From the NCBI RefSeq assembly GCF_044704955.1, contig NC_091996.1:57350001-57414000 (forward strand): 64,000 nucleotides of DNA, given 5' to 3'. Positions 1,103 to 56,788 of the stretch are shown piece after piece. The notes beneath the pieces were generated by a model that saw only the letters and a program-made list of their open reading frames with translations, was not told the origin of the DNA and did not search any database. Position numbers and translations under genes: made by a program. Position 1 is the first letter of the stretch. Every line of letters starts with the position of its first letter. This stretch comes from Pristiophorus japonicus. Taxonomy: Eukaryota.

Positions 1103-1319
1103 TGTTATGTATTGATGTGTGTATCGTCCTGGTACCTTAAATGTAATGTAAGCACAATGCTACACCACAGAGGGTGGGAAACCTGGAAGTACACTATAAA
1201 AGGCTGACCACCACACCTGAGAGGCACTTTGGAGCTGAACAATAAAGGACGAAGGTCACAGCAGTTAGATTTACATCAGACCGTGTGGAGTCAATGATTT
1301 GTGTGCTACATACACCACA
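1103..1319 (+). repeat. 5' LTR
   Basis: Direct repeat of 3551-3775; contains TATAAAA and AATAAA. Confidence 0.93.
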
Positions 1320-1320
1320 T

Positions 1321-1331
1321 TGGCGACAAGG
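1321..1331 (+). promoter_or_regulatory. Primer binding site, probably tRNA-Ser(GCU)
   Basis: TGGCGACAAGG directly after the LTR; resembles the complement of the tRNA-Ser(GCU) 3' end (TGGCGACGAGG). Confidence 0.7.
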
Positions 1332-1354
1332 AAGCGGATGAACTCCACGCAACC

Positions 1355-3166
1355 ATGGCTACTCTGGGCTCACTAAAGGATTTTACCGTGGGCAATGATT
1401 GGGAGGCCTTCACGGAAAGGCTCGAGTACTATTTCACAGCAAACGACCTGACAGAGGACACGGACGCAATGAGAGATAAGCGAAAGGCGATATTGCTCTC
1501 CAGTTGTGGAGATGAGGTTTACTGACTCGTCAGGGATTTTCTGGCACCCGGGAGCGCCAGGGACAAGTCATACGAGGAGCTGACTGAACTCATTTGTGAC
1601 CAGTTGAAACCGAAGGAGAGCATCCTCACGGCCAGATACAAATTTTACCATCACTGCAGACCCGAGGGCCAGGATGTCACCAAATATGCTGCGAACCTCA
1701 GGAGACTCGCGGCGCCGTGTGATTTTGGCGCACACCTTGACGAGGCGTTACGGGACGTTTTCGTTATGGGGATTGGCCACGAGGGCCTCCTTCACAAGCT
1801 GCTAGCCACAGAACCCACAGTCACTCTGACAAAGGCCATCACCATCAGCCGGGCACATATGACCTCGACTTGCAGCACCAAGCAAATAATCCACACAATC
1901 TCGAACTCGGCAAGCACTGTCCACAGGATAGCACCCACCACGGACAAAACTGCAGAACGTGACTCTGCCCGGGGCAGAGAGCACGGACCTCGGGGTCCTG
2001 GAACTCAGAGTCCGCTGAGGGGGGGGCCAATCAAGCAGCACCATGCTGCCGTTGTGGAGGAAGCCATGGGGCTCACCAGTGCAGGTCTGCGGAGTACACG
2101 TGCAATACCTGCCACACAAAAGGCCACCTTCAGCGTATGTGTAAAAGAAATCGGACTCACCATGTAGCTGAGGAGATGGGGGATGATCCACCATCCAGCA
2201 AGGAGCAGGCAGAAGATGATGAGGTGTTGGGGACTGTACACGTGTACCGACGATTCACCCCCAGTGATAAGGGAAATAAAAATCAACAGAGTCCCTGTGA
2301 GTATGGAAGTAGACACGGGCTCGAGTCCATCGTTTATGAGTCAGAGAACTTTTGATAAACTGTGGATTAACTCAGCCTCACGACCCAAGCTGGTCCCGGT
2401 CATGGTGAAGCTGCGTACCTACACCAGGGAACTAATACCTGTTCTTGGCAGAGCGATGGTGCAGGTATCCCACGGGGACGAGATGCACGGTTTACCTTTG
2501 TGGGTCATTGCAGGCGATGGGCCAACACTCCTCGGCCGGAGGTGGATGGGGACGGTCCGTGGGAGCTGGGAAGACTTCACCACTCCACAGGCTACTGCTC
2601 CCCAGGGTGCTGCCATGCCCCAGGTCCCCAGAGAGCAGCGCCGACCGAGCTGGAGCTGCAGCCTCAATCCACCCACAGGCAAGCCCCAGCCCTGGACCTC
2701 ACACAGAGATCCTGCAGCCTCAGCCCCCACAGGCAAGCAGCCCTGCAGAGAGGGGCCTGGTGGGGGGGGCGGGGAGGGTGAGCCGGCGGGGTGCGAGAGA
2801 TCCAGGATGGCCGGCGGATTTGAGGGGCCCACGCAGAGGGAGAGTTGGGTGACGGCAGTAGCTGGAGGTCGGCGGCCACGAGTCGGGAGGCGGCAACAGC
2901 TGGAGGTCGGCGGCCGCAGGGGAGGCCGCTACGGAGGACGCGGGGGAGGCGGCAAGTGCAGCCGCTGGAGAGGCTACGACGGCCGCAGGGGAGGCGGCTA
3001 CGGTGGCCGCCAGAGAAGCGACGACGACGGCCGCAGGAGAGGCGGCAAGTCAGGTGGCGGCAGAGGGCATCCGGAGCGGCGGAGAGCAAGATGGCGGCGG
3101 CCTCGGTCCAGAGCATCAAAGATGGCGGCGCCCAAGGAGAAGCCTCGTGGAATCCTCCTGCATTAA
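1355..3166 (+). pseudogene. gag: Gypsy gag-protease pseudogene with a GC-rich C-terminal extension
   Basis: MATLGSLKDFTVGNDWEAFTERLEYYF... with an in-frame TGA at 1523; zinc knuckles at ~2045-2140 after a frameshift in a G run; protease motifs 'MEVDTGS' and 'LLGRRW' in ORF 2183..3166. Confidence 0.88.
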
Positions 3167-3550
3167 AGATGACGCCTTAAAAAGGAAATGCACCCGGGAG
3201 TCTTAAAAGGGCCTTACCATGTGGTGGTCCCCACAAAGGACTTCTGTAAGGCAGAGTGAGTCTAAAATGAGCTACGTTAATGTGAGATGGCGAATTTATA
3301 ATAAGAATTAATTTTTTAATGCTGAATGGCCACTGTATTTGTATAAAATAATGGATATGAAGTCCAATTAATGATAAGGGCTAACAAGGAAATCAGGGAT
3401 CCGTTACCAGTCAATAACTAGTTAATGTACCAGATAACATGTACCATACTAACACACTGTCTATGCCTACCTGCCTTCCATTGGACAAGTGTGATGTTAT
3501 GTATTGATGTGTGTATCGTCATCCTGCGTCCTGGTGGGGGGGAAGTGTGA

Positions 3551-3775
3551 TGTTATGTATTGATGTGTGTATCGTCCTGGTACCTTAAATGTAATGTAAG
3601 CACAATGTTACACCACAGAAGGCGCTGTGGTGGGAAACCTGGAAGTACACTATAAAAGGCTGACCACCACACCTGAGAGGCACTCTGGAGCTGAACAATA
3701 AAGGACGAAGGTCACAGCAGTTAGATTTACACTAGACCATGTGGAGGCAGTGATTTGTGTGCTACATACACCACA
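3551..3775 (+). repeat. 3' LTR
   Basis: Direct repeat of 1103-1319, preceded by a PPT. Confidence 0.93.
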
Positions 3776-10356: not shown

Positions 10357-13300
10357 TGGTCACGACTGCCGTTGATATTTGAGAGAGATTTGTCGAGGAT
10401 GATTATTGGGAAGCCTTCGTTGAGCGTCTTGACCAGTACTTCGTGGCCAACAAGCTGGATGGGGACGATAAAGCAATCAAGCGCAGGGCGATTCTCCTCA
10501 CTGTGTGTGGGTCCACAATATACGGCCTCATCAAGAATCTTCTAGCACGGAGAAACCAGCGGAGAAGACATATACAGAGTTGGGTACGCTGTTCGGAACC
10601 ACCTCAAGCCGAAAGAAAGCGTCTTAATGGCCAGGTATCGCTTCTACACGCACCACCGCTCCGAGGACCAGGACGTGGCGAGATATGTCGCCGACGTGAG
10701 ACACCTTGCGGGAACTTGCAAATTTGCTGAATTTTTGGGGGAAATGTTGCAAGACTTTTTTGTGCTTGGCATCGGCTACGAGGTCATTCTTCACAAGCTG
10801 CTGTCTGCCGAATCCCTAGACCTGAGCAAGGCCATCACGATAGCCCAGGCATTCATATCCACGAGCGATAATACCAGGCAGATATCTTCCCAGCATCGAA
10901 GCTCACCGGCAAGTAATGTGCATAAAATAACGTCGCTAGCAGGCAGAACTGCATATTGGCAGGGACTAAACGTCTGCAGCTGCAAGACCTAGGATAACTG
11001 AGAGTCTGCCAACGGGCATGAATGCAAATCCTTAAGCACCATGTTGGCGCTGTGGGAGTAATCATCGAGCCCATCAATGTCAATTCAAGCACTACATGTG
11101 CAAAGGCTGCGAAACAATGGGGCACCTCCAGCGAATGTGCAAGAGTGCTGCGACTCACCACGTGGCAGAGTCGGCAGAGGATGATCGATCTGGCGTGGAT
11201 CACGCAGAACAAACAAGAGTGGCAACTCAACCTGAGGAAGAAGTGTATGGGGTACACACCTTCACCACCAAGAGCCCTTCTGTCATGCTGAAAGTCAAAG
11301 TGAACGGCATTCCTGGATCAATGGAGTTGGACACGGGGGCGAGTCAGTCAATTATGAGCCAGAAGGCTTTTGAGAAACTGTGGGGCAACAAGGCACAAAG
11401 GCCCAAACTGAGCCTGATTCAGAAAGCTGTGCACCTACACCATAGAGCTCATACCAGGCATTGGCAGTGCGGCAGTTAAGGTATCGTACGATGGTGCTGT
11501 GCATGATTTATCACTGTGGATTGTACCAGGTGATGGGCGAACGCTATTCGGCAGAAGCTGGCTGGGAAAGATTCGATGGAACTGGGATGATATCAAAGCA
11601 CTATCTTCAGTGGATGATGCCTCATGCGCCCAAGTGCTGAGCAAGTTTCCGTCGCTATTTGAATCAGGCATCGGCAACTTCACAGGCGCCAAGGTGCAGA
11701 TCCATCTAGTCCCCGATGCAAGGCCCGTTCATCACAAGGCTCGAGCGGTTCCATATATGATGAGGGAGAAAGTCGAGATCGAACTGGACAAATTTCAACG
11801 AGAGGGAATCGTATCACCAGTCGAGATCAACGAGTGGGCCAGTCCGATTGTTCCTGTGTTGAAAAGTGATGGCACGTCAGAATCTGCGGAGACTACAAGG
11901 TAACGATCAACCGAGTCTCGCTTCAAGACCAGTACCCGCTACCCAAGGAGGATGATCTGTTCGCAATGTTAGGGGGCGTGGTGGGGGGGGGGAAGTCGTT
12001 CACCAAGTTGGACCTAACCTCAGCCTACAAGACACAGGAGCTGGCTGAATCTTCGAAAAGATTGACGTGCATCAACACGCACAAAGGACTGTTTATATAC
12101 CACAGGTGCCCTTTTGGGGATTCGCTCAGCTGCTGCTATCTTCCAGAGGAACATGGAGAGTCTGCTGAAATCGGTTCCTTGCACCGTTGTGTTTCAAGAC
12201 GACATCCTGATCACCGGTCGTGGCACCACCAAACACCTGCACAACCTGAAAGGGGTTCTAAGTCGACTAGACAGAGTGGGACTCAGGCTGAAACGCTCCA
12301 AGTGTGTTTTCCTGGCGCCAGAATTTTTGGGGAGAAAGATTGCGGCAGACGGCATCAGACCCACGGACTCAAAGACAGAGGCCATCAAGAATGCACCCAG
12401 ACCACAGAATGTGACAGAGCTGCGTTCGTTCCTGGGACTCCTCAACTATTTTGGTAACTTTCTACCCGCGTTAAGCACTTTGCTGGAACCATTGCACATG
12501 TTGCTACGCAAGGGGGACGACTGGGTTTGGGGTAAATCTCAAGAGACAGCCTTTGAGAACGCCAGAAACCTACTTTGTTCTAATAAGTTACTTGTACTGT
12601 GTGACCCGTGTAAACAATTAGTGCCAGCTTGTGATGCATCTTCATACGGGGTCGGCTGTGTGTTACAGCAAAGCAATGTATCGGGCAAACTTCAACTGGT
12701 TGCATATGCGTCTAGAAGTCTGTCTAAGGCTGAAAGAGCTTACAGTATGGTCGAGAAAGAGGCGTTAGCATGTGTATACAGGGTTAAGAAAATGCACCTA
12801 TACCTATTTGAACTTCAGTTTGAGCTTGAAACCGACCACAAACCGCTCATTTCGCTGTTTTCAGAAAGCAAAGGTATAAACACCAATGTTTCGTCCCGCA
12901 TCCAAAGATGGGCACTAACATTGCCTATGACTATGATTATGTTATCAGCCACAGACCAGGCAGGGAGAACTGTGCTGATGCCCTCAGTCGGCTACCATTG
13001 CCCACTATCGGGGTGGAAATGGCACAGACTTGCTTCTGGTCATGGATGCTTTTGAGAGCGAGGGGTCACCCGTCACTGCTCGTCAGATCAGGACCTGGAC
13101 TAGCCAGGATCCTGTGCTATCACTTGTAAAAAGCTGCGTCCTCAATGGGAGCTGGTCGGCCGTTCCCGGGGAAATGCAGGATGAAATTAAGCTGTTTCAC
13201 CGACGCAAAGATGAAATGTCCATTCAGTCGGATTGTCTCTTATGGGATAATCATGTGATTTTGCCAAAAAAAGGCAGGGAAACATTTATACGTGACCTAC

Positions 13301-19245: not shown

Positions 19246-20430
19246 ACAGGTCACTCGTTTCTGACTACTGCGGGCTGCTGTTCCGTGGTCTGTGAGATTT
19301 GTCCTTGCCTTTTCTTAGGTGTTGTATCCTTAGGTACCTGCCACCCATTGAATCCTTCCTTTGATCCATCAATGATCTATCTTCTTTGAGCACGCATGTA
19401 GCACTTTGTAAAACTGGTCTATTTACTATAGTCTAGCGCTATCATGGACCTCATTTTGTTCAGTATCGTTTTTTTACATTTCTACAAAGGTTTAGTCAGC
19501 ATCGATATTTACATGTCTACAAAATATTTCCTACAGTAGTATCACTTCCATTGTGTTTTGGTTTATTTTCTGATTACAGTTTATGTGGTTTTACATTTCT
19601 ACAAAAGGTTTGCCAACAGTCACTATTGCTTGTATTGTGTTGGTGTTTCTAGCACAGATTAACATGAAGCATTTTAACCAGAAGTCTCCAGGAGTTCTTA
19701 CATATTACAGGAAGTCAGTATTTACAGCTTTCTTATTTTACATTAAGCATTTTATACAGAATGTTTAAAAAGATTAATCACGGAATTCGATTTCATGGGC
19801 CTTACTCTGGATGCTTTATACAAAAGTTTTCTTTTGAAAGTTATTACTGATTTTCAAACGGGTGACGTTTTCAAGCCCTACACAGCCACTTTGTCAAACC
19901 TATGTGAATTCACTTTGTTTTAACATGCAACACAACCATTAAACATAATTCAATCCCAACATCCTTTCCATGAAGGAAAAAAAGAGATCAAAAATGCCAA
20001 AATGTGCCGGTTACTTTTCAAACTCTAGATTGACTAATGGATCTCAATTTTCCTTTTTTCTACATTCCTGTCTGTCATGTACTTGCTTCATGGGTTCTTT
20101 GCTCAAGAATTCATAGCAACACATTGCTATTAAGAACTAGTTGATTTATTAACAAAGGTTCATCAATCACACTACACATTACTATTCATCCACTGGGCTC
20201 ATACCTAACTGCATACCTCATCGTGGATGACCTAGGGAATCTAACTGACTTGGGTTTTATTGAGTCTTGTGAACATCAAGTGACTGGTTAAGCCATTCAC
20301 AATGCAACAGCTCTACAACTATTTTGTTGCGTCTGTAAATCTGTAAATCAAAACGTAAATCAAAGGCCTCATTATTAAAGGGGCACAAAAATCGACAATT
20401 TGAACAAATTAAACTTTAACCTTAAAATGG

Positions 20431-20738
20431 TCAAATTAAAATTTGGTTGACGGGGGTGATGACACGCTCCAGTCCCTCCGGCACCCACCTCTCCGGAAGG
20501 CCGCAAGCGTATATGGGCCAGCAAGATAGCCACCTGACAAGAAATGGCAGTGAGGTGGCTCATGCGGACCTCTCCTTGGCAGTCCAGGAGCCACGTGGCC
20601 TTGTCTCCCGGAACGGTGTGGATTTCTTGCAGGAAGCACACCACGTATTAGCCCTGCCGTCGGAGCGAAAAACGTGTTAAATCTACGGTGTGCCTCTCTG
20701 TCGCCGTTGATGTTGAGGCTGGCTATGGTTATCTCCAT
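20431..20738 (-). pseudogene. Tx1-like ORF2 remnant (APE start fused to the C-terminus)
   Basis: Deletion junction near 20515; no RT motifs. Confidence 0.8.
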
Positions 20739-20759
20739 GATAAGAGCATAGTGCAATCT

Positions 20760-22867
20760 CTACCTTATACTACGTGGGGAGGAAGCGGAGTCGTGCGATG
20801 ACCTCCACTCCCTCAGCAATCCAGTGAGGAACATTTTGAGCCAGAGCAGCTCAAGATTGTATTTTTTTGGTAAGGTCCTGTCCGTTCCCATGGTTTTGAT
20901 GGCGGCGCGGACGGATTTGATGAGCTGCGCCGGCTCAGACTATTTGTCCAGGGCCAGCTGGGCTCTATTGCAGCGACCATGGCATTCCGCCAAAAAGTCC
21001 CAGAGTTCCTTGACAGGAATGAGGGTGGACTCAGCGGCAGGCACGAGGAGATCCATCGCCTCGCTGGCGATGGGATCTAAATCCTCTCCCACGCCTAGAC
21101 CGAGTCCCCGTCCTCCTCCGGGAGATTGCCACCAGCGGCCAGTCTGTCGACCACATGGGGTACGGTGAATGGCCCAGCCACACCATCCGGCCCTACGTCT
21201 GTCACGATCCCACCCCCGGGATTGTCGGCAGAGGAGTCCCCCCCTGGGCACCTCCTAGGATGCCGGGTTGGGAGACCCCCTCCACCTCAGGCACCGGTGA
21301 GCACGGAGAAACCGGGCCCAAAAACATTTCCAGTTCCTCCAAGTCCCCCAGCGCCAACGTCAGGGACAGAGATTAGGATTCCTCACCTTCCACGCCACCA
21401 CCACCCACCCCGCACCGCCCCCCCCTCCCCCCCACTGGCCCAGTGGGTGGAGGTACTTGAAATTCATTTTCTGCCTGGTCGAGCAGATCCCAGGGGATGT
21501 TGAGGTTAGACTGGGTGGGCTCAGTCTCGGCCTCGCCCGCCTCAGTCCCCAGGACGCTCGACCCAGCGGCGATACTTTCTTTTTGTGGCCCGGCAGCCCC
21601 CACAACAGGCAGGTCTTTTTCCCCATCCCCAGGAGGCTCAGGCTGGGCAGCCTCGGCTGTCTCACCGTCCCAAGGGATAGACTCCCCCTGCCTTCGGCGC
21701 ACATTGGGAGTGCTGGTGGGGGTCGCGGGACACTCGCCGGGCACCAACTCCTCCATGGAGGGATCTTTGTCATCCTCCACTTCCCCGGAGTGGTGCCTCC
21801 TTTTTTCATCTGGATGGACGCTGAGGTAGAGAGACCCCCATGTCTGCCGAGGACTCCACCTCCGCCCCCTACTTCTGGGTGTCTTGCCTGCGCCTGAGCC
21901 CGACTGCGGGTATCGTACCATTCGCAGAAGCAGGTGTGGTCAAGGGGTCAGGCTTGGGCCTGGGATGCCCCGCACTCGCCAGTTATAATATGGGGCCGAG
22001 CGCAGTGTTGGGGATGTCTGGCACACTGAGGGGACTCGCATGCTGGTGTTTGGCTTTCCTCCGCGCGTTCCTTCTGCGCAGATGCTCTCCCTCCACCCCC
22101 ACCGGAGGCCGTGATGGACAATGGCTCCCGACGATGCCCGCGCATCTACGGCTCCCGACACGTGGATGGTGATAGGGGGAGGAGTGGCAGCAGCAGCAGC
22201 CTCAGCCGCTTTAGGTGTTTTAGCGGCCTTGGAGGCGGGGCAGTTCTTGCAGACATGCCCCACCTCCTTACAGGCATGGCACCACACGCCATCCGATGTC
22301 CAGAAGATGCAGTAGGCTGTCCCCTCGTGGACCACGTCGAATCTTCCTTCTGTTACCTCCTCCCAGACCAGCTGGATGAAAAACTGGCGCTGGAAGAAGA
22401 ACATATGATGGAGGCCTGAAGCCGAACAGAATGGGATTAAACTCTGACCTCTCCTCTCCCAGTTGATATAGGTGGGGGAGGAGGAGCTCACTGGGAACAA
22501 AGGGCGGGACGTTGGATATAACTAGTCTCTATGCGGTGGCCTCGAGGGGATCCACCGGCAGGAAGGTCCCGCCCACCATGAGCCCCTTACTAAGGGCGAG
22601 GGACACCGCGCGCTCCGACTCCAGGAAGGACACAGCCTTCCCATACATTTTAGAGGCGGCGACAATGGCCGAGGGGCCGACGACCCCAGCCATTGCTCTC
22701 ATGCACTCCTCAATATCCATGTTGGGGTGAGTGTAGCTCTTGACCCTGTTCCTTTTGGTTAAAAGTTTGAATGGTGGCAGGGCAGCAGGAGGAACAGCAG
22801 ACGCCGTGGCCGCCACTTGCGTATAGGTCTTTGCTGGCCCCGCCACCGGCGAAGATGAACTCGCCAT
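20760..22867 (-). pseudogene. Tx1-like ORF1 (CCHC zinc-knuckle nucleic-acid-binding protein), frameshifted
   Basis: 'IEECMRAMAGVVGPSAIVAASKMYGKAVSFL' is the typical Tx1 ORF1 N-terminus; CX2CX4HX4C motif present. Confidence 0.85.
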
Positions 22868-23708
22868 GTCAGGGTCCCTTTGGGGGCCACACTCACTCCA
22901 ATGTCACAGGCCCAAAAAGTCTTAATGGCCTCCTAAATTTAGCAGAGGGAGCTCTTAATTAGGCACATCTCTCCCCTGCGGGTTTAACAATTGGGGAGGC
23001 GCCTTTTTCCCTCTGCTCAGTTGTCTTGATTTCATTAAATTAAAAAGAAGAGAAGGAGAGGCCTCTCAGAGAGAGAGAGAAACTGGAGAGACAGAGAGAG
23101 ACAGAGAGAGAAAGAGCGAAGGGGCTGGGAAAGAGGGAGGCTGTGAGGGCAGGGTCGCCCCTCTCAGTGTTGGGTGGGTGCACGCGGAGGTGAACTCTCC
23201 GATGGAAATAGAAAGTCTTTATCGATGGTCTTCTGGTGGGGGGAAAAGATGTCTTTGCTCGGGATAACTGGAACCACCCAGGAACAGTCCTCCACTAGGA
23301 CTCAACGTTGTAATTAATTGACAGGCAGCTCTGGCTGCCACGGGCCAGGCAATGGGGGAGGGGTGCATTTAGTAGTGTGTGGGGCCCAGTTATATGCAAG
23401 AACCCCACACACTTACACACACATACCCCCGCACCCCCCCCCCCGCGCCCCCCCCATGATATTCCAGCCTTCTTAAATGATCTTCTTTCCTTCCCCAGTT
23501 GCTGCAGCTTTTTATTTTACCCTCTCTCCAACTCTTTGGCAGCAGTGTTGTAGCTCTTGCTCTCCTCCTCTCCCTCAAGGTGTTGAAACAGTAGGCCTCT
23601 TCCTCCTCTCCTGCAGACTCAGGTTGCAGCAGCAGCAATTGCAGCAGCTCCTTTCAGCAGGCTCACAGCTCTCAAGTGACTAAGCCACTCCCGCAACAGC
23701 TCTACAAC

Positions 23709-24491
23709 TATTTTAAGTTGCACCTGTAAATCAAATAATCAAGTAAATCGTGCCCCCTGGTTAAAGGGAGGGAGGGCACTAAAACCGACACAATTAAACA
23801 AATTAAACTTTGGACAGTCAACTGGTTCAAATTAAAATTTGGTTGCCGGGGGTAACGATGCACTCCAGTCCCTCCAGTGCCCACCTCTCGCAGAAGGCCA
23901 TGATCGTACCGGTGGGCACTGCGTGCTCCATCTCTAAGGACACCCTGGACCGGATGTAGGCGCGGAAGAGAGGCAGGCAGTCAGGCTGAACGACCCCCTC
24001 GACCGCCTGCTGCCTGGCCCAGCTGATGGCCCCCTTGGCCATGCCCAGGAGCAGTCCTACGAGAAGGCCTTCCAACCTGCCCGCTCCCCTCCGCACAGGG
24101 TGCCCAAAGATCAGGAGCGTGGGACTGAAGTGCAACCAGAAATTGAGGAGCAGCCCCTTCAAATAATGAAATAGGAGCTGCAACCTCACACATTCCATAA
24201 AAATGTGGAACACGGACTCTTCCAGACCGCAGAAATTGCAGGCGGCCTGGGAGTCCGTGAAACGGCTAAAGAAATTATTGCACGGGACTGCTCCGTGCAC
24301 CACCCTCCAGGCCAAGTCCCCGATAAATAGTGGGAGGACTCCCACATAGAGTACTCCATCGGGGACCCCTGCCTCCTCCGGATAGCAAGATGGTGTGCCA
24401 TGATGTGTCCGGATGGCAGACGAGGATGGCAAGTTGGAGAGTGTGCAGGAGAAGCCTGTACAGGAAACCCCTCTGTGCAGAACTGAAAGGA
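23709..24491 (-). mobile_element. Tx1 copy B, 5'-truncated
   Basis: 'GDLAWRVVHGAVPCN...ACNFCGLEESVFHIFMEC' (zf-RVT) plus 3' UTR; flanked by target repeats. Confidence 0.9.
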
Positions 24492-24506
24492 CAACAGCTC
24501 TGTAAC

Positions 24507-25407
24507 TCTTTTGGGAGGGGGACAAAATAGACAGTTAGTTCGAGTGCCCCCCAATCTGGGGGACTCGAACTAAAACACTTTTCGAATGTCCTTTTTTTGT
24601 TTTTTGTTTTTTTTTATTTTTTTTTTTGTGTTTTTATTTGGGCTTTAAAATCATATATTTTACAAGTGCCCCCTATAAAAGGGGAGGGGGACACTAAAAA
24701 CCCAGCAATGAAAACAAATTAAAGGTTAAAACATATAAAATCAAATTAAAAGTTGGTTGCCGGGAGTAACAATGCACTCCAGTCCCTCCGTTGCCCACCT
24801 CTCGCGGAAGGCCGTGAGCGTACCGGTGGACACCGCGTGCTCCATCTTCAAAGACGCCCTGGCCCGGATGTACGCGCAGAAGAGAGGCAGGCAGTCAGGC
24901 TGAACGACCCCCTCGACCGCCCGCTGCCTGGACCGGCTGATGGCATCCTTGGCCGTGCCCAGGAGTAGTCCTACGAGGAGGCCCTCGGAACTACCCGCTC
25001 CCCTCCGCACAGGGTGCCCAAAGATCAGGAGTGTGGGACTGAAGTGCAACCAGAAATTGAGGAGCAGCCCCTTTAAATAATGGAACAGGGGCTGCAACCT
25101 CGTACATTCGATAAAAACGTGGAACGCGGACTCTTCCAGACCACAGAAATTGCAGGCGGCCTGAGAGCCCGTGAACCGACTAAAAAATTTATTGCACGGG
25201 ACTGCTCCGTGCACCACCCTCCAGGCCAAGTCCCCGATAAATAGTGGGAGGACTCCTGTGTAGAGTGCACTCCATCGGGGACCCCCGCCTCCTCCGCACG
25301 GAAAGATGGTACGCCATGGCATGTCCGGATGGCAGACGAAGATGGCAAGGTGGAGAGTGTGCAGGAGCAGCCTGTATAGGAAATCCCTCTGTGCAGAACT
25401 GAAAGTA
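24507..25407 (-). mobile_element. Tx1 copy C, 5'-truncated
   Basis: ORF 24741..25322 zf-RVT C-terminus; flanked by target repeats. Confidence 0.9.
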
Positions 25408-25422
25408 CAACAGCTCTATAAC

Positions 25423-25462
25423 TCTTTTTGGGAGAAAAAGTAAACATTAAATCAAGTGCCCC
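25423..25462 (-). mobile_element. Tx1 copy D, 40-bp extreme 3' end
   Basis: Matches the 3' end of copy F; flanked by target repeats. Confidence 0.75.
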
Positions 25463-25477
25463 CAACAGCTCCACAAC

Positions 25478-26338
25478 TCTTTTGGAGTTAACAATAAACA
25501 TTAAATCATAAACGTTAAATCATGCCCCCCCGATCTGGGGGACACTCCAAACATTTCCCAAGGCCCATTTTTGGGTTTTTTTTGTAGGTTTTTTTTGGGC
25601 TCTAAAACCATAATTTACAAGTGCCCCCTATAAAAGGGGAGGGCGACTCTGAAAACCCGGCAATTAAAACAAATTAAACTTTAAAACATATAAAATCAAA
25701 TTAAAATTTGGTTGCCGGGGGTGAAAATTCACTCCAGTCCCTCTGGTGCCCACCTCTCGCGGAAGGCCGTGAGCGTACCGGTGGACACCGCGTGCTCCAT
25801 CTCCAGGGACACCCTGGCCCGGATGTACGCGCGGAAGAGAGGCAGGCAGTCAGGCTGAACGACCCCCTCGACCGCCCGCTGCCTGGACCGGCTGATGGCA
25901 CCCTTGGCCGTGCCCAGGAGCAGTCCTACGAGGAGGCCCTCGGACCTACCCGCTCCCCTCCACACAGGGTGCCCAAAGATCAGGAGTGTGAGACTGAAGT
26001 GCAACCAGAAATTGAGGAGCAGCCCCTTTAAATAATGGAACACTCCATAAAAGCGTGGAACACGGACTCTTCCAGACCGCAGAAATTGCAGGCGGCCTGG
26101 GAGCCCGTGAACCGACTAAAAAATTTATTGCACGGGACTGCTCCGTGCACCACCCTCCAGGCCAAGTCCCCAATAAATAGTGGGAGGACTCCCGTGTAGA
26201 GTGCACTCCATCGGGGACCCCCGCCTCCTCCGGACGGAAAGATGGTACGCCATGGCGTGTCCGGATGGCAGACGAGGATGGCAAGGTGGAGAGTGTGCAG
26301 GAGCAGCCTGTGCAGGAAACCCCTCTGTGCAGAAAGGA
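25478..26338 (-). mobile_element. Tx1 copy E, 5'-truncated
   Basis: Same ORF2 C-terminus as copies B and C; small internal deletion near 26041. Confidence 0.9.
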
Positions 26339-26353
26339 CAACAGCTCTATAAC

Positions 26354-26549
26354 TCTTTTAGGGGGAGATAAAATAAACATTAAATCAAGTGCTCCCTGAT
26401 CTGGGGGACACTCCAGACACTTATACCTGGCCTCTTTTTTTGTTGTTTTTTTGGGGGGGTTTTTGTGGGGTTTTTTCCTCTTGTGATTTTTTTGGGGCAT
26501 TAAAATCATATAATTTACAAGTGCCCCCTATAAAAGGGGAGGGGGACAC
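26354..26549 (-). mobile_element. Tx1 copy F, 3' UTR only
   Basis: Two GC hairpins and a T-rich tract as in copies C and E; flanked by target repeats. Confidence 0.85.
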
Positions 26550-26639
26550 CAACAGCTCTACAAACCTGTGAACTTACGCCCAGGTGCATACATTACACTG
26601 TTTTCATTTAGAAATGTTCTGATCTCCCTCTCTGACACT

Positions 26640-32243: not shown

Positions 32244-32370
32244 TAGAGAAACTGGCCCTGAAATTCCAGCCTCCCCAGGACCGTACGGAGTGTGTATGGA
32301 ACTGGAAAGGCATCACATAAGCCGGTTTTCGGCACGCAATGCGCATGTGCCGAAAACCAGCTTTTCCCAT

Positions 32371-35300
32371 TCTAAAGTCCTGTCCCCTCAGTACAGATTC
32401 ACACGAGGCATGTAGTGAAGTCAAGGTCACTCTGGACCTGCACCTTTATCTCACAGCTCTGGAATGCTGCACTTGCCTGAGACCTGTCCTTATATACCTG
32501 TCTCTTGCAAGTGCACCCCTGGTGGTAAGGTATGCTGGTGGTTACAGGTCATATCTTATTACAGTCATGTATAGCATGTTAGGATACAGTTATATATAAT
32601 AATGTAAGATACATGACATCACCCTCCCCCAAGGTCTTATTGTCTTTATAGGTTCAGTCTCTCAGGTGGTCTACGCTCTCGCGTGGAGCGTCTGAGTTGT
32701 GGTTCAGTTGTTTGCCTTGGTGTCTGTTTTTCTTTGGGTGTGGTTGCTGGTATCTCGCCTGGGCTGTCTGTTTCGATTAGTGTGATTGTTGTTGACTCAC
32801 CTGGGCTGTCTGTTGGGATTGCCCTTTCCTCAGGTTGTTCCCTCTGTCTGTCCACCAGGTATGTTGCGAGTTCCACATTGTAGTCTGCCTCTGGTTCCGC
32901 AGTGTTGTTGCCAAATCTGCTTTTGATTTGGTCTACATGCCTCTGGCAGGTTTTGTCATTGTCCATTTGTACTACCAGTAGCCTGTTTCCTTCCTTGCCC
33001 GTTACTGTCCCTGCAAGCCATTTGGGGCCCCTGCCATAGTTTAGTACAAACACTTTGTCCCCTATCTCATTCCATCTCCCCCTCGAATTTCTGTCATGGT
33101 ACTCAGTCAGCTTACGGCGCTTTGCCTCAACAATTTTGTGCATGTCTGGGAGGATTAATGAGAGCCTTGTTTTTAAAGTCCTTTTCATCAACAGTTGCGC
33201 GGGGGGATCCCAGTCAGTGAGTGCGGACGAGATCTGTATGCCAGCAGCAGTCGCGACAGGCGACTCTGCAGCGTGGGACTTTGGATTTAAAGCATGCCTT
33301 GTTTAATAATTTGCACTGCTCTCTCCGACTGGCCGTTGGAGGCCGGCTTGAACGGTGCCGTCTTGACGTGATTTATGCCGCGGTCAAATATAAAGTATTG
33401 GAATTCTGCGCTGGTGAAGCACGGACCATTGTCACTGACCAATATGTCAGGGATTCCGTGCGTTGCAAACATGGTTGCGAGGCTCTCCACAGTGGTGGAG
33501 GTTGTCTCGAGTTTACAATGGTGCATTCGATCCACTTTGAAAATGCATCTACAATTACGAGGAACATTTTGCCCATGAATGGGCCCGCATAGACTATGTG
33601 CACCCGCGACCACGGTTTGGTAGGCCAGGGCCAGGGGCTCAGTGGAGCCTCCCTGGGGGCATTGCTGAGTTGGGCACAAATGGTGTACCTTCGGACGGAG
33701 AGCTCCAAGCCCGCGTCAATACCAGGCCACCAGACGTGGGATCTGGCTATGGCCTTCATGAGAATGATCCCCGGGTGCTCGCAGTGGAGCTCCCGGACAA
33801 ATGCCTCTCTGCCTCGCAGAGGCATGACTACTCGGCTGCCCCACATCAGGCAGCCTGCTTGTAGTGATAGCTCATGCATGCGCCTGTGAAAGGTTTTAAT
33901 TCCTTGGGGAAGGCATCGCGAGCCTATGCCCAGTCACTGGTTAGGAAACAGCTTTTTACTAAGGATAACGTGGGGTCGCTGACCATCCAGGCTCTGATTT
34001 GGCGAGCCGTCATGGGCGAACCTGTGGACTCAAAGGCATTGGTTGCCATGACTATCTCACAGTCCTGTTCGTCAGACCCTTCCGTGGTCGCCAGGGGTAG
34101 CCTGCTGAGCGCGTCGGCACAGTTGTCTGTGCCTGGTCTGTGTCTTATGGTATAGTCGTAGGACGCCAGCATGAGTACCCACCGTTGAATTCGCGTTGCC
34201 GTTTATTGCCTTGCTCTCAGATAGGAGGGACATGAGGGGCTCGTGGTCAGTTTCTAACGCGAACTTGGCCCCGAAAAGGTATTGGTGCATCTTTTTGACA
34301 TCGTACACGCACGCGAGCGCTTCCTTCTCTACCATTCCGTACCCGCGCTCCGCCCGCAAAAGTGACCTGGAGGCATAAGCTATGGGTTGTAATTTGCCCG
34401 CGCTATTCACATGTTGCAAAATGCACCCGACCCCATACGCTTATGCATCGCATGTGAGAACTAGCTTTTTACCTGGGTCAAAGAAAATCAAAACACTGTT
34501 GGAACACAGAAGGTTGTGTGCCTTATTGAAGGCGCGTTCCTGGGCGTCCCCCCAAAAGCAATCGCACCCCTTCCTGAGTAGCACGTGGAGAGGCTCCAGC
34601 AGTGTGCTTAAGTTCTGCATAAAGTTCCCAAAGTAATTAAGTAGCCCGAGAAAGGCACGCAGTTCTGAGACATTCCGGGGCCTGGGAGCCAGGCGAATTG
34701 CTTCTGTTTTGGACTCTGTTGGGCGGATTCCATCAGCGGCAATCCTTCTGCTCAAAAATTCAACCTCGGGTGCCAGAAACAGGCACTTGGATTTCTTGAC
34801 TCGTAGGCCTACCCGATCCAACTGCTTTCGTACTTCCTCCAAATTATGGAGATGGGAGTTGGTATCCCTGCCCGTACTAAGTAGGTCGTCTTGAAATACA
34901 TCCGTCCCCGGGATGGACCTGAGCAGACTTTCCATGTTGCGCTGGAATATGGCAGCTGCTGACCTGATGCCGAATGGGCATCGATTGTACATGAAAAGGT
35001 CTCGATGTGTGTTGATGGTGGTGAGTAGCTTGGATTCCTCGGTCAATTCTTGCATCATATACGCAGATGTGAGGTCTAATTTTGAGAAAAGTTTACCTCC
35101 AGCCAATGTGGCAAATAAGTCCTCCGCTCTGGGCAGCGGGTACTGGTCCTGTAGGGAGACTCTGTTTATGGTAGATTTGTAGTCCCCACAGATTCGTACG
35201 GATCCATCAGGCTTCATGACTGGGACGATGGGACTTGCCCAGTCGCTAAATTCCACAGGTGATATAATGCCTTCTCGCAGAAGCCTGTCTAGTTCGTGTT

Positions 35301-37106
35301 CAATCTTTTCCCTCATCACATAGGGTGCAGCTCTGGCCTTGTGATGGACCGGTCTAGCATTCTGTGTGATGTAGATTTTGACTTTGGCCCCTTTGAAAGT
35401 GTCCACATCTGGCTGAAAGAGATGTTCAAATCGCTTTATAACTGTTGAGCAGGAGGTCCATTCCTCTAATGACATGGCATGGACATCATCCCATTTCCAG
35501 TTTAGTTTTGCCAGCCAGCTTCTCCCCAGCAGTACTGGGGGGTCTCCGGGGACAATCCACAGGGGAAGTCGGTTCACTGTCCCTTTGTGTGTGACAGAGA
35601 GCATGGAGCTGCCGAGGACTGGTACGATTTCTTTGGTATAGGTCCTTAGTTTGGTGTTGACCCTTGTGAGTTTTGGTCTGTCTCTTTTATGCGGCCACAG
35701 TTGTTCAAATTGTTGAGCGCCCATGAGAGATTGACTCGCTCCCGTATCCAGCTCCATGTTGACAGATATCCCGTTGAGTAGGACCCTCATCATTATAGGA
35801 GGCTTCCTGCTGTAGGAGCAGTGGCCATTGATCGTGTTGAACCGCTGTACATCGGTGTCCCGGGTACTGTCCCCACCATCTTCTGGTCCGCTTTCCGACC
35901 CATCCGATTCGTATACCAGCCGAGCTGCCGTTTTTTTGCACATGTGGGCCAAATGCCCTGTATATTCACAATTTCTGCAAATAGCCTGCTGAAATCGACA
36001 TCCCCTTGACGAGTGCCCACCCCCACACCTCCAGCACAGACCTATTCCATTGTTCCAATTGTTCCCAAAGAATGAGCTGCGTCTGGCTGATCTCTCGTGA
36101 GCTTCTCTCAGTTTGTAGTTGATTGCTCGCATTGTGGGTTGATGAGGTGTGAACGGCCGTTCCTGTGGCCCTTGATGGCTTCTGCCTGCTGTCGAGAGCC
36201 TGTTCTCCCGGTTTTGTCTGTGTGTGGGGGCAGCAGCTTATTTAGTGCTGTGAACTTCTTGTTCCGATATTTCGTTAGTTGTCGTACCTGCATTGTAAAT
36301 CAACCTCGTTTCTTCTTCCCCAACCAAGAATGTCTGTGCAACCAGTGCTGCTGCCTCTAAGGTCAGGTTCTTGGTCTCAGAGATTTCGGAATATGCCTGC
36401 GTGGCCTATTCCTTCAATGAAAAAGTCTCTCAACATTTCTCTCCTCAGTTCATCGAAGAACTCACATAAACTAGCCAACCTCCGAAGTTCCGCCACGAAG
36501 TCAGGTATGCTCTGGCCCACACAGCGTCTGTAGTTATAGAACCTGTGTCTGGCCATGTGTACGCTGCTAGCTGGCTTCAGGTGGTCTCTTACCAGTGTGC
36601 TCAATTCTTCAAACGACTTGCTTGTTGGTTTCTCGGGTGCCAACAGATCCTTCATTAAAGCGTATGTTTTCGAGCCACAGCTGGTCAAGAGATGGGCTCT
36701 TCTCTTGTCTGCCTTATCATCGCCTAACCAGTCTTTGGTTACAAAGCTTTGCTGGAGCCTTTCTGTAAAGTCCTCCCAATTGTCTCCCGCATTGTACTTT
36801 TCATCTGATCCGTTGTTCGCCATTCTATGGATTCTGTAATCCTGTAACTCATCGCCACTGTAAAGTCCTGTCCCCTCAGTACAGATTCACACGAGGCATG
36901 TAGTGAAGTCAAGGTCACTCTGGACCTGCACCTTTATCTCACAGCTCTGGAATGCTGCACTTGCATGAGACCTGTCCTTATGTATCTGTCTCTTGCAAGT
37001 GCACCCCTGGTGGTAAGGTATGCTGGTGGTTACAGGTCATATCTTATTACAGTCATGTATAGAATGTTAGGATACAGTTATATATAATAATGTAAGATAC
37101 ATGACA
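32371..37106 (-). mobile_element. Full-length Gypsy LTR retrotransposon
   Basis: 248-bp LTRs at 32371-32618 and 36859-37106 with about 5 differences by eye; TSD CCCAT/CCAAT; PBS TGGCGATGAG at 36848-36857; PPT at 32619-32630. Confidence 0.95.
32646..36823 (-). pseudogene. pol: Gypsy gag-pol pseudogene
   Basis: gag 36377..36823; 563-aa ORF 34441..36132 with zinc knuckles, PR 'ELDTGAS' and RT 'FQDD'; RNase H and IN in frameshifted ORFs. Confidence 0.93.
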
Positions 37107-38009
37107 CCAATCTGTCAAGTTCTGGCTTGACAGTTCGCACATATCTTGGCAGCCAGGACATTCGCATCGGAAAGATTGCGCTATTTGCCTATCACTTGCC
37201 CAGCAAATGTCCTTAAAACTCTTATACCTGGTAAAAGCAAACGCATAGCCTACTTTTAACAGCATAAGAGTTTTAAAACATATAAAAAAACATGTAAAAA
37301 TAAAATTTAAAAACACATTTTTCAGTTAAAAATCCTGCCCACTAAGATAAGATTATGTTAAAGTCTAATTATTAAAAAAACAGAACAATATTTATTTTTC
37401 TAAGACATTTATTAACTTTAATTTCAATTAATTTTAATTATGTGAGGTGTGTTTTTTATTTTTTATATTGTGTTTAGTGTGTTTGTTTTTTTTTCATTAA
37501 TAGCAATGAGAACTCGTAGATACGGAGTTCCCATTGCTCGTAATGAGAATACTGTACCTGATTGGTTGAGCAGTCACACATGACTGCACCTTCTGCATTG
37601 GAACCTCGAGGACAGGAGCGCGCTTCGCAGTGCGGGAAGAGAAGGCCTCCCCGCCGGAATCGAAGGTGCCTCCGGGAACAACAGATTATTTCGTTAAAAT
37701 TCTTGGGTCGGAGGCGTTCGTCCGAAAGAAGCCTCCAACCAGAATTTCGGGTCCATTATTTCCTCTGGCAGGGAAATCCAGAACAAGGGGCATCATCTTA
37801 AAATTAGAGTTCGTTCATTTAGGAGTGAAATCAGGCAGCGCTTTTTCACCCAAAAAGTAGTAGAAGTCTGGAATTCTCTCCCCCAAAAGGTTGTGGATGC
37901 TCGGTCAATCAAAACTTTCAGGACTGAGATTGACAAATTTTTGTTAGATAACGGAATCAAATTATATGGAGGAGAGAGGCAGGAAAAAGGAGTTGAGATG
38001 CAGATCAGC

Positions 38010-49260: not shown

Positions 49261-50653
49261 TAGAAATCAATTATGCCCACATGCCAAAAACTAATTAAAA
49301 AAGATTGATCAACTCGTGATGTCTATTAGAATCCACCAAGAATCTTCCAATCAGGCGATAGTGGCCCTTTAAGAGCACAACACAATTAAATAAATTCACT
49401 TATATTTTACCACAGTTTCATAAACAGCTTTGATAACTCAGGAAATTTAGTGAAGTGGATGATTATTCGCTCTCTGGGAGCTACAAAGGCATATTACCTC
49501 ATGTCCCTGCAGCCCTCAGTGAGGTACATGGGGTTGAAAACCATGCAAATGATTTCACCACTTAGAAACTGTGAACTAATCAAGAAAGCATTAAATAAAC
49601 CCTCAGTTCAACTTTGCTCCTTCAATATAATGTGACTTGTACTTGTCATTAAAATCCTTATCAGTCTCAAATCCATAAATAACTACAGAAATGAAAGGTG
49701 TTAAAAACCTTCCCATTAAACAATCCTGCTGTGCAGACTAGATAATTACCACATCAGATAATAAATGCTTTATAGTGTAGCTGTGGCATTTCCCCATGGT
49801 CTGTTGCAAATTATTCACCATTAAAACCAAGGTAAGAAATCACAAAGCATTACAAGGGGATAATATCACTGAAAATCCCTGACCGAGTCTCGGACAGATG
49901 AGAGAGAATTCTACATTACAGAAGTGTGCTAGATGGAAGGCAGAACGTCTGCTCTCTTTCTCCATTGGTTGCATCCACCAATGTAAATATCATGGCCCAT
50001 AGAGAGGCAGATTGTTAAACATGACAGTGTGGGTCTACCAATCCCTATTAGATCAAGCCCATCTCTACCTTTACTGTTTCTGTCAGAGTGTAGCGTACAG
50101 CAAGCGATAACTCTGATTCTCCAGCTAGCTTCAACACTACACCAAGAAATATGGCTATAGGTCAGAGCTTCAGAATCCAAATCCTTTAATAAATGCAGTG
50201 TAAAACTGTTGGTAAAGAATAAAGACAGATCTAGAATTCTTGTAATACAACAGTAATAATCGAATAAAAACAGCAATAAAGAGAAATTACTTACCTCTTA
50301 CTGTACATCAAAGATAAAATACAACAATTCCAGAATGATTGGATAAGGAGAAGTTACTTACATAACTGTACTTCTAGAAAGGTCCACAACTACAGAAGAT
50401 CCGTTTCTAATTTACAAAAGTTAAATATTGTTCTAGCTAAATTGGAGGCTGACCTATGCTTTCTCTCTCTCTTTGTTTCTGTTTCTCTGCCTGTCTTTGT
50501 CCAATCGGGAAATGCCACCCAGTGGCGGGAAAACATCAAGACAGCTATGGTGGCCACAATCAGTCAAGAAGCTCCAATCATTACACTCCCCGTCGAAAAA
50601 TAACAAGTATTGACATTTTTACCAGTTAAAGTTCAGTTCCTTTTAGTTCGTGG

Positions 50654-52785
50654 TCATCTGTATGAGTACAAGTTCCATCTCAGGTAGCTGCAATGTGTGC
50701 CATCACTGCAGACCATACCATCCACCTTATGTACCCTTCCGTCATTGATGGGGTAGGACACGGAGGCTCGTGCAAGTGGCCAGTCATTCTGGGGAAGTTC
50801 TTTCTGCCAGAAGAAAATGACATCCCGACAGAGGTGTCTGGCTTTGTCTCGTTCGTCTTGTGTCAAGGCTGTTGGCTCTGCCGTCGAATCTGGAGTTGAT
50901 CTGCAGGTGGTTGGGTCCGTCACCCTTGTCGTCGACCATACAGATCCGGTTGCGACAAGTTGCCAGCTGGTGCCTGGAGGGACTGAGTTTTCGAAGCCAC
51001 AAGCATGGCGGGAGTAAGTGCCTGAGGTTCATTGTTGAGAAGTGGAGGGAACTCTGAGATTCCCTCCGAGTTAAGGTGAGCACCTTCTGTCATGATCTTA
51101 ACTGAGTGTTGGTGTCGGATGGACATGGCCTTTGGTGGCCGAAGGATAGTACGGGTGACAGAGGCATTGGCTTTCTCATTTGACCCGCTTGGGCAAACCT
51201 GTCCAGAGACTGTCCAGCCTAGGTCTGTACGTTGTGTGCACAGTGATCCTCTCAGCCCGTTGCGAGACTCCCTGATCTTGAGGGGTTCAGGGCAGTTTCT
51301 TCCAATGAGGAGGATGATGGGGGCATCCTCTCTTGGCTCGGGTATCTTTTTCGCCACTGACCTGAGATGGAGGAACTTCTCGCAGAAATCAAGACGTGGG
51401 ATCTCGCTTCTGTCTCTGGGGATGTGGGCATTCTCGAGGATGGTAGGCAGCTGTTCTGTCTTTCCATCTACTGCTTCTATGATTAGATGGCCTGCTCATC
51501 TCCCCTTGGCCGTGATCTCATCTCCGCCACTGGTGGCAAGCTCATACGGGAAGGCTGGACACGGAAGTCTAACACATAAAAGATTTTGGGGTCTCCGAAA
51601 CAGGCATTAGATTGGTCATCCACCACCACGTAGCCAAGGATACGTTTTGAGGGACGATCCCTGTGGTTGATTCGACATAGAATGATCTTAGAACAAGATC
51701 GTGCGGAAGGGCAAGCCAGGTATCTGGTGCACTTTGCGTTGGTCTGTATGACCTGTGGCTCGTCAATTGGCCTTTCGTAGTGGGTCTCCCCGCCATTCTG
51801 TCCCAGTGTCACGTGCATGAAGGAGGCATGCTCTGTGCCTTGGCATTCCTTGCAATGCACCTTGGTCTGGCAGTCTTGCATTCTGTGGTGGTCGTCACAC
51901 CTGAAACACAAGCTGTTGGATCTGCAGAATTCTGAAAGTGATGCAATCCGACAGATGATGGCCTCGCCCATCATGGTAGAGGCATAACTCTGAAGCTAGC
52001 AACGTGGGCGCTGACTTCGTAAGTGTACATGTTGCCAAGTCGCGAAGGGAAGAGCTGGGACTTCTGTTTCCTCCTATCCTCACTGAGGGTGGCTGATGTA
52101 CCTTGCTTAATGCGTAAAGGTCACTGTCGCTCTGCTGTCTGGCTTCTTTTTTCAGGAATTTAGCCAGCACGCTGAAAGGAGGATAGCTGCTGTTATCGGT
52201 CTTATGCTCTGATATGCGCTTACTCCATGCATTGCTTATGTAGTTATGGAGTTTTTTAAGCATCGGATAAAGAGAGTGGGAATAGTTGAGCAGCCCCAAG
52301 TCGGGAAAGTCGTCCATCTGTGCTGCGATGTCCGTGCACAATTCGCCAAGTTCGCGAAGTTTGTGGCCTTTGTCCACCCTGAACTTCGGAAAGCTGTTGA
52401 GCTTTTGAAGGATGGATGTGGTAATCCTTATCCTGTCACCAAAACTCTCTTCTAGTTCCTTCCACGCTTCCTGGTAGGCTGTTTCAGGGTTCAAAATGTA
52501 CCGGTGCCAGAACCTGTCTACCAATATCTTGACCTTCCCCGATGTGAACTTGGAAAGAAAGGTAAGCTTCTGCGTGGCTGGGGTGGTGGCCTAGTCTACC
52601 ATGGTTTCGAATGCGTAGTGCCATGGCTGAAACATGATGGGGTCCCCATCATAGACATCGGGCTCGCGTACAGGCTGATGCTGATGAGCGAGAGTGTAGG
52701 TAATGTCCTTTGTCAGGTTGAGGAATGGCTCCCTCTGCCGGCTCGAGAGGATGGGGGCTCAGGTAGTTTGGTGCTACGCTGCTGA
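50654..52785 (-). pseudogene. gag: BEL gag-protease fused to the integrase C-terminus
   Basis: 'YQEAWKELEESFG', 'YPPFSVLAKFLKKEA', 'LLIGRNCPE...TDLGWTVSGQVC', 'ALTPAMLV'. Confidence 0.85.
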
Positions 52786-55192: not shown

Positions 55193-55869
55193 GACTTGTG
55201 AACCGGGTGATTACTCGGGGTAATTCTTAAATCATGGTTCACAGTTATTTTTACGATACTGTTTCTGTCAGAATGTAGCATATGGCGAGCGATAACTCTG
55301 ATTCTCCAATTATCTTCAACACTACACCAAGAAATATGGCTAAATGTCAGAGCTTCAGAATCCAAATCCTTTAATAAAAGCAGTGTAAAACTGTTGGTAA
55401 AGAATAAAGACAGATCTAGAATTATTGTAATACAACGGTAACAATCAAATAAAAGCAGCAATTCAGAAAAGTTGCTTATCTCTTACTGTACATCAAAGAT
55501 AAAATACAATAATTCCAGAACAATTGGATAAGGGAGAAGTCACTTACAATAACTGTACTTCTAGAAAGGTCCGCAACTACGGAAGATCCGTTTCTAATTA
55601 ACAAAAGTTAAAAATTGTTCTAGCTAAAATGGAGGCTGTTCCATGCTTTCTCTCTCTCTTTGTTTCTGTTTCTCTGCCTATCTGTGTCCAATCAGAAAAT
55701 GTCACCCAGTGGCAGGAAAACATCAGACAGTTACGGTGGCCACAATCAGTCAAGAAGCTCCAACCATTACACTACCAAGAAGCTGAGGACAAGGTTGATT
55801 GCATCATCTCTGTGACTGCAATTGTAATCCAGTTTAAGGTGTGCTCACTCTCTCTCTCTCTGGTTGTAT

Positions 55870-56763: not shown

Positions 56764-56788
56764 AGTGATTTACTTATTGATCAGAAAC

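Follow-up and report, generated by a model that had tools for sequence, protein, structure and literature searches.

Described systems close to the array treated here include crocodilian retrotransposons of the Tx1 clade: in Kojima 2015 (PMC4494074), two crocodilian Tx1 families prefer specific long terminal repeat (LTR) retrotransposons, and tandem SINEU-3 copies sandwich a target site duplication (TSD). Here we analysed a window, the whole stretch of 64,000 nucleotides (nt) from the shark Pristiophorus japonicus (NC_091996.1, positions 57,350,001 to 57,414,000), in which six Tx1 units are stacked at one site of an LTR, and followed their family by searches of the 5.9-Gb genome of this single assembly. 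The shark family resembles Tx1-8_Crp, Tx1-4_AMi, Tx1-Mar and SINEU-3 in its LTR preference and in tandem insertions around the TSD, and also in having two preferred sites in one host element and heads drawn from other sequences. It is set beside them by description; the crocodilian families cluster with Keno, and the available text reports no inherited truncation points for them. Because PMC4494074 and PMC2718515 report both LTR-targeting by Tx1 and tandem stacking at a duplicated target, these two features are already published, and the suggestion in the sequence-only reading that such a target might be undescribed is not supported. Taken alone, the LTR target is a routine further example of a known habit.

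Other systems share single steps with the shark arrays. For R1 in Drosophila 28S ribosomal DNA (rDNA), Stage and Eickbush 2009 (PMC2718515) describe annealing between complementary DNA (cDNA) and target, and tandem growth on the 5' side. R1 relies on microhomology or on 6-27 nt of rDNA, co-transcribed and upstream of the nick, whereas the homology in the shark appears to lie downstream of the nick, in up to ~250 nt of a resident copy, and to fix the truncation point of the newcomer. A tumour study (bioRxiv 2024.08.27.596794) reports 22 templated insertions of L1, typically <250 bp and within 15 bp of the site, perhaps an undercount; there, citing Gilbert et al. 2005, the cDNA pairs with DNA beside the site and the template is duplicated. 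Those templates are non-L1 sequence in tumours, whereas the shark template would be the family's own resident copy and the product is the majority class in inherited arrays. A further preprint (2024.12.14.628481) takes small tandem duplications at L1 sites for large TSDs. Double-insertion dimers of transposable elements (TEs) likewise preserve target and TSD and build arrays by repeated insertion (McGurk and Barbash 2018, PMC5932611); the authors cite distinct truncations as the sign of independent events, whereas in the shark separate events carry identical truncations. Our full-text literature searches, whose coverage reached neither Repbase nor most subscription journals, brought up no description of truncation points being inherited within arrays of long interspersed nuclear elements (LINEs).

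Our main observation is that most stacked pairs in the shark include a chimera, in which a short 5' tract resembling the neighbour (less than ~250-300 nt) is followed by a 3' part from another source. We propose, with a probability of roughly 0.7, that most later copies keep their own 3' end and acquire the neighbour's 5' junction, the new cDNA pairing with the resident copy to finish integration. The inherited 5' junction would be known cDNA-annealing chemistry in a new form, here as the majority outcome. In the window the array is composed as follows (U1 to U6 denote Tx1 units; the LTR's own regions are written LTR-U3, R and LTR-U5):

20068 to 20072, no strand: left copy of the 5-nt duplication flanking the host, matching 26598-26602 at 4 of 5 positions.
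20073 to 20304, minus strand: downstream part of the solo Gypsy LTR (rest of LTR-U3, R and LTR-U5, with AATAAA near 20256); in other copies the primer-binding site (PBS) joins this end.
20305 to 20318, minus strand: target copy 1, 14 nt, at the 3' junction of U1, by motif match.
20319 to 23693, minus strand: U1, an internally deleted Tx1 of the older subfamily, with head, 5' untranslated region (UTR), broken open reading frame (ORF) 1, start of the APE domain, end of ORF2 and 3' UTR.
23672 to 23693, minus strand: the U1 head's opening 22 nt, which resemble LTR positions 20276-20304 directly downstream of the target.
23694 to 23707, minus strand: target copy 2, by motif match.
23708 to 24491, minus strand: U2, a 5'-truncated Tx1 with the ORF2 C-terminus including zf-RVT (45% identical to Tx1L residues 1124-1292) and a short 3' UTR of the older type.
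24492 to 24505, minus strand: target copy 3, by motif match with 2 mismatches.
24506 to 25407, minus strand: U3, a Tx1 chimera with the 5' end of U2 and a different, younger-type 3' UTR.
25408 to 25421, minus strand: target copy 4, by motif match.
25422 to 25462, minus strand: U4, a 3' tip of Tx1, 41 nt, by sequence comparison.
25463 to 25476, minus strand: target copy 5, by motif match.
25477 to 26338, minus strand: U5, a Tx1 with the 5' end of U3.
26339 to 26352, minus strand: target copy 6, by motif match; one short-read contig bridges it without differences.
26353 to 26549, minus strand: U6, a fragment of a Tx1 3' UTR, 197 nt, by sequence comparison.
26550 to 26563, minus strand: target copy 7, 5'-most of the seven and still adjoining the LTR's start.
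26564 to 26597, minus strand: first 34 nt of LTR-U3, by LTR comparison.
26598 to 26602, no strand: right copy of the 5-nt flanking duplication, matching the left copy at 4 of 5 positions.

Most of what had been read from the letters alone was borne out. The seven positions named for the 14-nt target motif (20305, 23694, 24492, 25408, 25463, 26339 and 26550) are exact, each copy having 0-2 mismatches. If up to 3 mismatches are allowed, 15 matches occur in the window where 7.07 are expected, and no shuffle among 100 gave as many as 15. The six Tx1 copies lie in one orientation, on the minus strand, and have the sizes given (3375, 784, 902, 41, 862 and 197 nt). Their 3' UTRs do differ, being 69-91% alike and of various lengths, and the units diverge by 5-10% in ORF2. 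U1, the 3.4-kb unit, is internally deleted, not 5'-truncated: it keeps the head, ORF1 (ATG at 22867) and the APE start (ATG at 20738) and lacks ~3.3 kb of mid-ORF2, missing between 20511 and 20515, while ORF2 ends near 20431. U2, U3 and U5 stop at a single 5' point, at reference positions 666, 665 and 658, with a small deletion adjoining the 5' junction of U5. Longer Tx1 copies elsewhere read straight through this point. For the 5'-most 100 nt of U5, U3 ranks first among 66 units and is the best match in both 5' segments of U5, whereas for the last 150 nt of U5's ORF2 it ranks 90th of 217; the first 295 nt of that ORF2 tail are 96-98% identical to 39 copies elsewhere, among the matches listed, and 90-91% to the neighbours. 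U2 and U3 both match zf-RVT, and U2 is the likely donor of the junction shared in the window. U4 probably went into an internal target copy. That U4 and U6 form a duplicated pair, like one at locus L071, is unsupported, the two being 41 and 197 nt long and 86% identical over 43 nt.

The same pattern recurs across the genome, where counts rest on the top-scoring matches (40 scored per DNA search) and are no full census. Parsing of 201 merged regions gave 143 arrays with 235 units in all, of which 56 arrays are multi-copy. To be counted, a unit had to retain at least 40 nt of the ORF2 end, a rule that leaves out U4 and U6. We evaluated 88 neighbour pairs with both 5' ends inside the fetched DNA, and 53 of them share a 5' end within 10 nt (51 within 3 nt), with such a pair in 35 of 53 arrays, as against 630 of 24,165 pairs (2.6%) between arrays. 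Depending on the locus, the shared point falls between 122 and 1834 nt into ORF2; in L142, which is the shortest, ~90 nt of flank are common as well. Outside the LTR, sharing is seen in 9 of 15 pairs. Residents with at least 180 nt of ORF2 share their end with a neighbour of equal or greater length in 51 of 59 cases; for residents below 180 nt this drops to 2 of 10. The copies are therefore not simply the independent insertions they had been taken for: between most neighbours the 5' junction is common, and the make-up is chimeric. A genome-wide truncation hotspot was also considered and rejected, the apparent common end at other loci being the end of the query used.

How far the likeness between neighbours extends was measured by ranking, in pairs of at least 200 nt, the neighbour against all units of other arrays. 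Over the 5'-most 80 nt, 30 of 50 pairs with a shared end have the neighbour within the top 5%, and 21 have it as the best match. For the last 100 nt of ORF2 these figures are 4 and 1 of 50, and for the 3' UTR 4 and 1 of 45. In non-shared pairs it reaches the top 5% in 0/19 (5' segment), 1/19 (ORF2 end) and 0/13 (UTR). Ranked against the neighbour, the 3' parts stand at chance level (median fraction better 0.48), and they come from other subfamilies. The resident's rare variants recur in the neighbour as far as 249 nt from the junction (22/45, 14/35, 14/75, 15/73, 8/49 and 14/58; together 87/335), and beyond 249 nt hardly ever (1/24, 0/123 and 1/138; together 2/285), against a background of 50/3360. 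It is from this ranking, confined to the 5' end, and from the confinement of rare variants to the first 249 nt that the chimeric structure follows. Array mates are not each other's nearest relatives along their whole length, as they would be in a tandem duplication or a TE-derived satellite.

These features suggest the following course. The APE endonuclease would nick the bottom strand where a target copy lies immediately upstream of the resident, and the 3' end of the target, usually ACA or ACAA, would pair with the tail of the RNA and prime reverse transcription. The target's top strand, comprising the target copy and the resident's first 10-250 nt, might then anneal to the homologous cDNA, within the same molecule or via the sister chromatid. 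Finally, cDNA reaching past the 5' end of the resident would be lost and the junction duplicated, in effect a long target duplication masked by homology. Since cDNA beyond the resident's 5' end would be lost, a short resident would cap the length of later arrivals. The scheme predicts that material between resident and nick is duplicated, and two loci fit: at L071 a short Tx1 piece in this position was duplicated, its copy being the best match among 196 units, and at L142 a ~90-nt spacer of non-Tx1 sequence. The order of units fits a stack growing on its 5' side, as stated for R1 arrays (PMC2718515): older-type 3' ends lie on the 3' side and younger ones on the 5' side in 25 pairs and the other way round in 1, and in 39 of 55 arrays it is the 5'-most unit that looks younger.

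Were capture of this kind to operate, it would bear on steps that are still poorly understood in APE-type LINEs, namely 5' joining and second-strand priming. The arrays amount to a large natural experiment with a built-in marker, up to ~250 nt downstream of the nick copied into the new insertion, and offer a simple substrate for an assay. They also break a rule of thumb: an identical truncation in tandem copies does not by itself mark a duplication, so that insertion counts and ages drawn from such arrays can be wrong. Were occupied sites indeed to cut later arrivals short, the spread of site-specific LINEs would be held back in part by the elements themselves.

Several observations weigh against this reading. 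In 20 of the 50 shared pairs the neighbour lies outside the top 5% even at the 5' end, so that the copied tract there would be short or uninformative. One pair of 45 has the neighbour's UTR as its best match of all, and a few true duplications may be mixed in. Residents of at least 180 nt failed to capture 8 longer and 21 shorter neighbours, several of the latter shorter by <250 nt. Within shared pairs alone the age proxy gives no direction (27 vs 23, p=0.67), and pairs within one array are not mutually independent. Short non-crossover gene conversion between alleles predicts an identical structure with a similar tract length.

The last point leads to the rival that survives best, which we nevertheless consider unlikely. 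A newcomer would insert with its own 5' end and, while the insertion is heterozygous, a break at the upstream target copy, perhaps from an abortive endonuclease cut, would be repaired from the older allele, so that the newcomer's 5' end is replaced by that of the resident. Short gene-conversion tracts of this size are common, and the process would yield the same chimera and duplicate intervening pieces alike, as at L071 and L142. It would, however, need to work in ~51 of the 59 eligible cases, on copies that differ by up to 19% and with no drive known, and sharing shows no rise with age (23/28 among the youngest copies, 20/21 and 8/10 among older ones). Ordinary crossing-over is excluded, as units of at least 400 nt show 1 distant shared variant against 23 expected under uniform breakpoints; unequal exchange between sister chromatids requires a third copy, but shared ends also occur in 7 of 11 arrays that consist of two copies with LTR on either side.

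That a single truncated unit was locally duplicated in tandem, and then diverged or had its 3' part replaced from other loci, is considerably less probable still. Such duplication would give identical 5' junctions and junction letters, and by the standard of McGurk and Barbash (PMC5932611), where distinct truncations mark independent insertion, identical ones would speak for it, as does the one UTR pair in 45 noted above. But with 3' parts at chance against the neighbour and drawn from other subfamilies, replacement would be needed almost every time, and the first 295 nt of U5's ORF2 tail are closer to copies elsewhere than to the neighbours; simple tandem duplication is therefore largely refuted. 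An account by fully independent insertions into a regenerated site, whose 5' ends would coincide by chance or because the RNA has a truncation hotspot, fares slightly worse in general. Tandem R1 arrays form in this way (PMC2718515), and the account fits U1, U4, U6 and the 35 non-shared pairs. For the shared pairs it is refuted, by truncation points that are locus-specific where chance gives 2.6%, by the rare locus-specific variants common to neighbours, and by the longer copies that read through the window's truncation point. Misassembly of dispersed copies is scarcely credible: although no short-read contig (from one study, possibly of the source sample) spans the whole array, one bridges the junction at 26339 without differences, the units differ by 5-10% in ORF2, and 56 multi-copy arrays stand in the same build.

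The capture of a resident's 5' junction may also bear on the head of the element. In the older subfamily the first ~22 nt of the head resemble the LTR directly downstream of the target; scored with anchoring, heads compared with the LTR (23 heads and 116 hosts) reach a median of 19, where shuffled hosts give -1.5 to 0, while the unanchored shuffle test is marginal (7/500). Younger heads carry a diverged version including the target motif, even at non-LTR sites, and four older-type heads do not hold the 14-mer. A plausible candidate origin of the head is LTR sequence captured by the same long duplication. Tentatively, and at somewhat less than even odds, the observations may be joined as follows: capture of the resident's 5' junction would be the default finish at occupied sites, so far undescribed; truncated copies would trap later arrivals and trim them to their own length; and the older, LTR-like head would use the same annealing to make precise full-length junctions at empty sites.

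A separate idea, that a head-only short interspersed nuclear element (SINE) creates LTR-free self-targets, has been weakened, since L157 and L143 read better as read-through from an upstream copy (3' transduction), transcribed past the target into ~190 nt of the next copy's head. Inserts ending ~190 nt into a Tx1 head, at an A-run like the element's 3' end, are seen at L141, L143, L149, L153, L155, L157 and L165, and are probably read-through of this kind from an upstream array copy.

The assignment to the Tx1 clade holds by similarity: the reverse transcriptase (RT) of L065, which with L064 is one of the near-intact relatives elsewhere in the genome, has 62% identity at 100% coverage to YTX2_XENLA, the ORF2 protein of Xenopus Tx1L. 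The family shows zf-CCHC (weak, E 0.004), the knuckle expected in ORF1, as well as RVT_1 and zf-RVT domains, and aligns to Tx1L residues 134-409; identity to Tx1L is 45% from the C-terminus of APE onward and 45% in the C-terminus, the window copies being broken or truncated. Like Tx1L, the type element of the clade in Xenopus laevis, it has two ORFs, an ORF2 with APE, RT and zinc finger, and a mobile element as target; this target is the piggyBac derivative Tx1D for Tx1L, according to PMC4494074, and a Gypsy LTR with many off-target copies for the shark family. Keno, Dewa, Mutsu, Kibi and Koshi, with targets in U2, tRNA spacers, 5S or microsatellites, are unlike it, its flanks being the Gypsy LTR or dispersed sites. 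The family bears the signature of target-primed reverse transcription, with a fixed 3' end, variable 5' truncation and a TSD of 11-24 nt (mode 14; 26 arrays outside the host). At L067 a long Tx1 copy has internal segments inverted, as in twin priming.

The host is a solo LTR of a Gypsy-type element, as judged by its TG...CA ends, its TSD, the PBS, the reading frames beyond it and paired LTRs (L291 and L295); the superfamily and lineage label are ours in part, from motifs that we take to be diagnostic. The host pieces in the window sum to 280 nt, compared with 274 nt in the uninterrupted reference copy L004. The expected solo LTR is present, and the 5-bp TSD read for it is imperfect, with 4 of 5 positions matching; among 63 host copies with both ends, 37 have a 5-nt duplication matching at 4 or 5 positions, and registers of 4 and 6 nt fail. 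An LTR-end pattern followed by a spaced PBS matched 104 times, mostly at one and the same PBS-like junction, and PBS-joined copies continue into gag-like, RT (RVT_1, weak) and rve integrase frames, which supports a true LTR with the Tx1 site in its U3 region. The target lies 34-48 nt from the start of LTR-U3, and the LTR reads in the sense of the minus strand, the same orientation as Tx1. Decayed host internals show 32-41% tblastn similarity to another Gypsy-type pol from the window. The host had also been considered as a small DNA transposon with 10-nt inverted ends, an idea that arose from the lack of a PBS directly at the LTR end (39/39 pattern matches) and of a shared polypurine-tract flank (18 distinct loci); it was dropped on discovery of a PBS set off by a 3-nt spacer. 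The first 7-11 bases of the host, not its body, recur in other Gypsy-type LTR families (L221:8608, L156:15983), one of which lies directly at the 5' end of a Tx1 array.

The LTR site is a strong and leaky preference, a genome-wide hotspot that is not an exclusive target. Our LTR search yielded 3945 candidates, so counted at least ~0.02% of the genome, and Tx1 occupies this site in 10 of 29 other loci from that search. Among 30 loci picked by a 20-mer at the far end of the LTR, 7 are occupied, 18 empty, 2 without the site, 2 unclassified (one of which holds a head-type insert at the site) and 1 without an LTR call. The enrichment expected across other LTR copies is therefore real, as is regeneration of the site by each insertion. 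Of 19 PBS-joined LTRs, 10 are occupied by pattern (one at a second site), 4 are empty and 5 were classed as other, including L282, which is occupied on inspection. Conversely, Tx1 copies lie in the LTR in 17-20 of 29 U5-like, 21-23 of 29 U2-like and 7 of 29 U3-like top matches, given as ranges because the looser classifier of flanks miscounts at least L032, a CR1 site, as LTR. In all three samples one sequence type makes up >20% of flanks, the measure by which Kojima calls a Tx1 target-specific. Of the preference for LTR-U3 put forward at the outset, the enrichment at one site is upheld, and exclusiveness is limited by leakage, as in the U3-like sample. In the 26 non-LTR arrays the duplication (11-24 nt, mode 14) ends in ACA or ACAA in 21, so that pairing between primer and RNA may contribute to site choice.

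Further observations concern the sites themselves. LTRs joined to internal sequence (L271-L290) look more often occupied than solo LTRs (~10-11 of 19, with 4 empty, vs 17 of 59), in a small sample. A second Tx1 site lies within the same LTR, ~110-117 from the end of LTR-U5 (L044:1076-1117, L144:1300-1345, L189:1614-1922 and L289). At L061, L064, L065 and L156, four separate Tx1 insertions stand within a few bases of one position in elements that we take to be CR1-like, possibly a second hotspot; L064 shows no clear TSD, and L061 holds a three-copy array with a shared end. The paralogous LTR copies L172 and L173, with flanks 90% similar, form a filled and empty pair, one with Tx1 at the site and the other without. 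In the window, a short Tx1 outside the LTR at 56772-57180 has its own 16-nt duplication, followed by bases similar to those past the LTR site. Remains of other LTR retrotransposons lie at 32367-37109, 1173-3775, 50072-55725 and 10546-13055, with Gypsy-type gag/pol at 34441-36886 and 2168-3166, RT/RNase H at 12066-13055 and a DUF1759 domain, presumably of BEL/Pao type, at 51895-52590.

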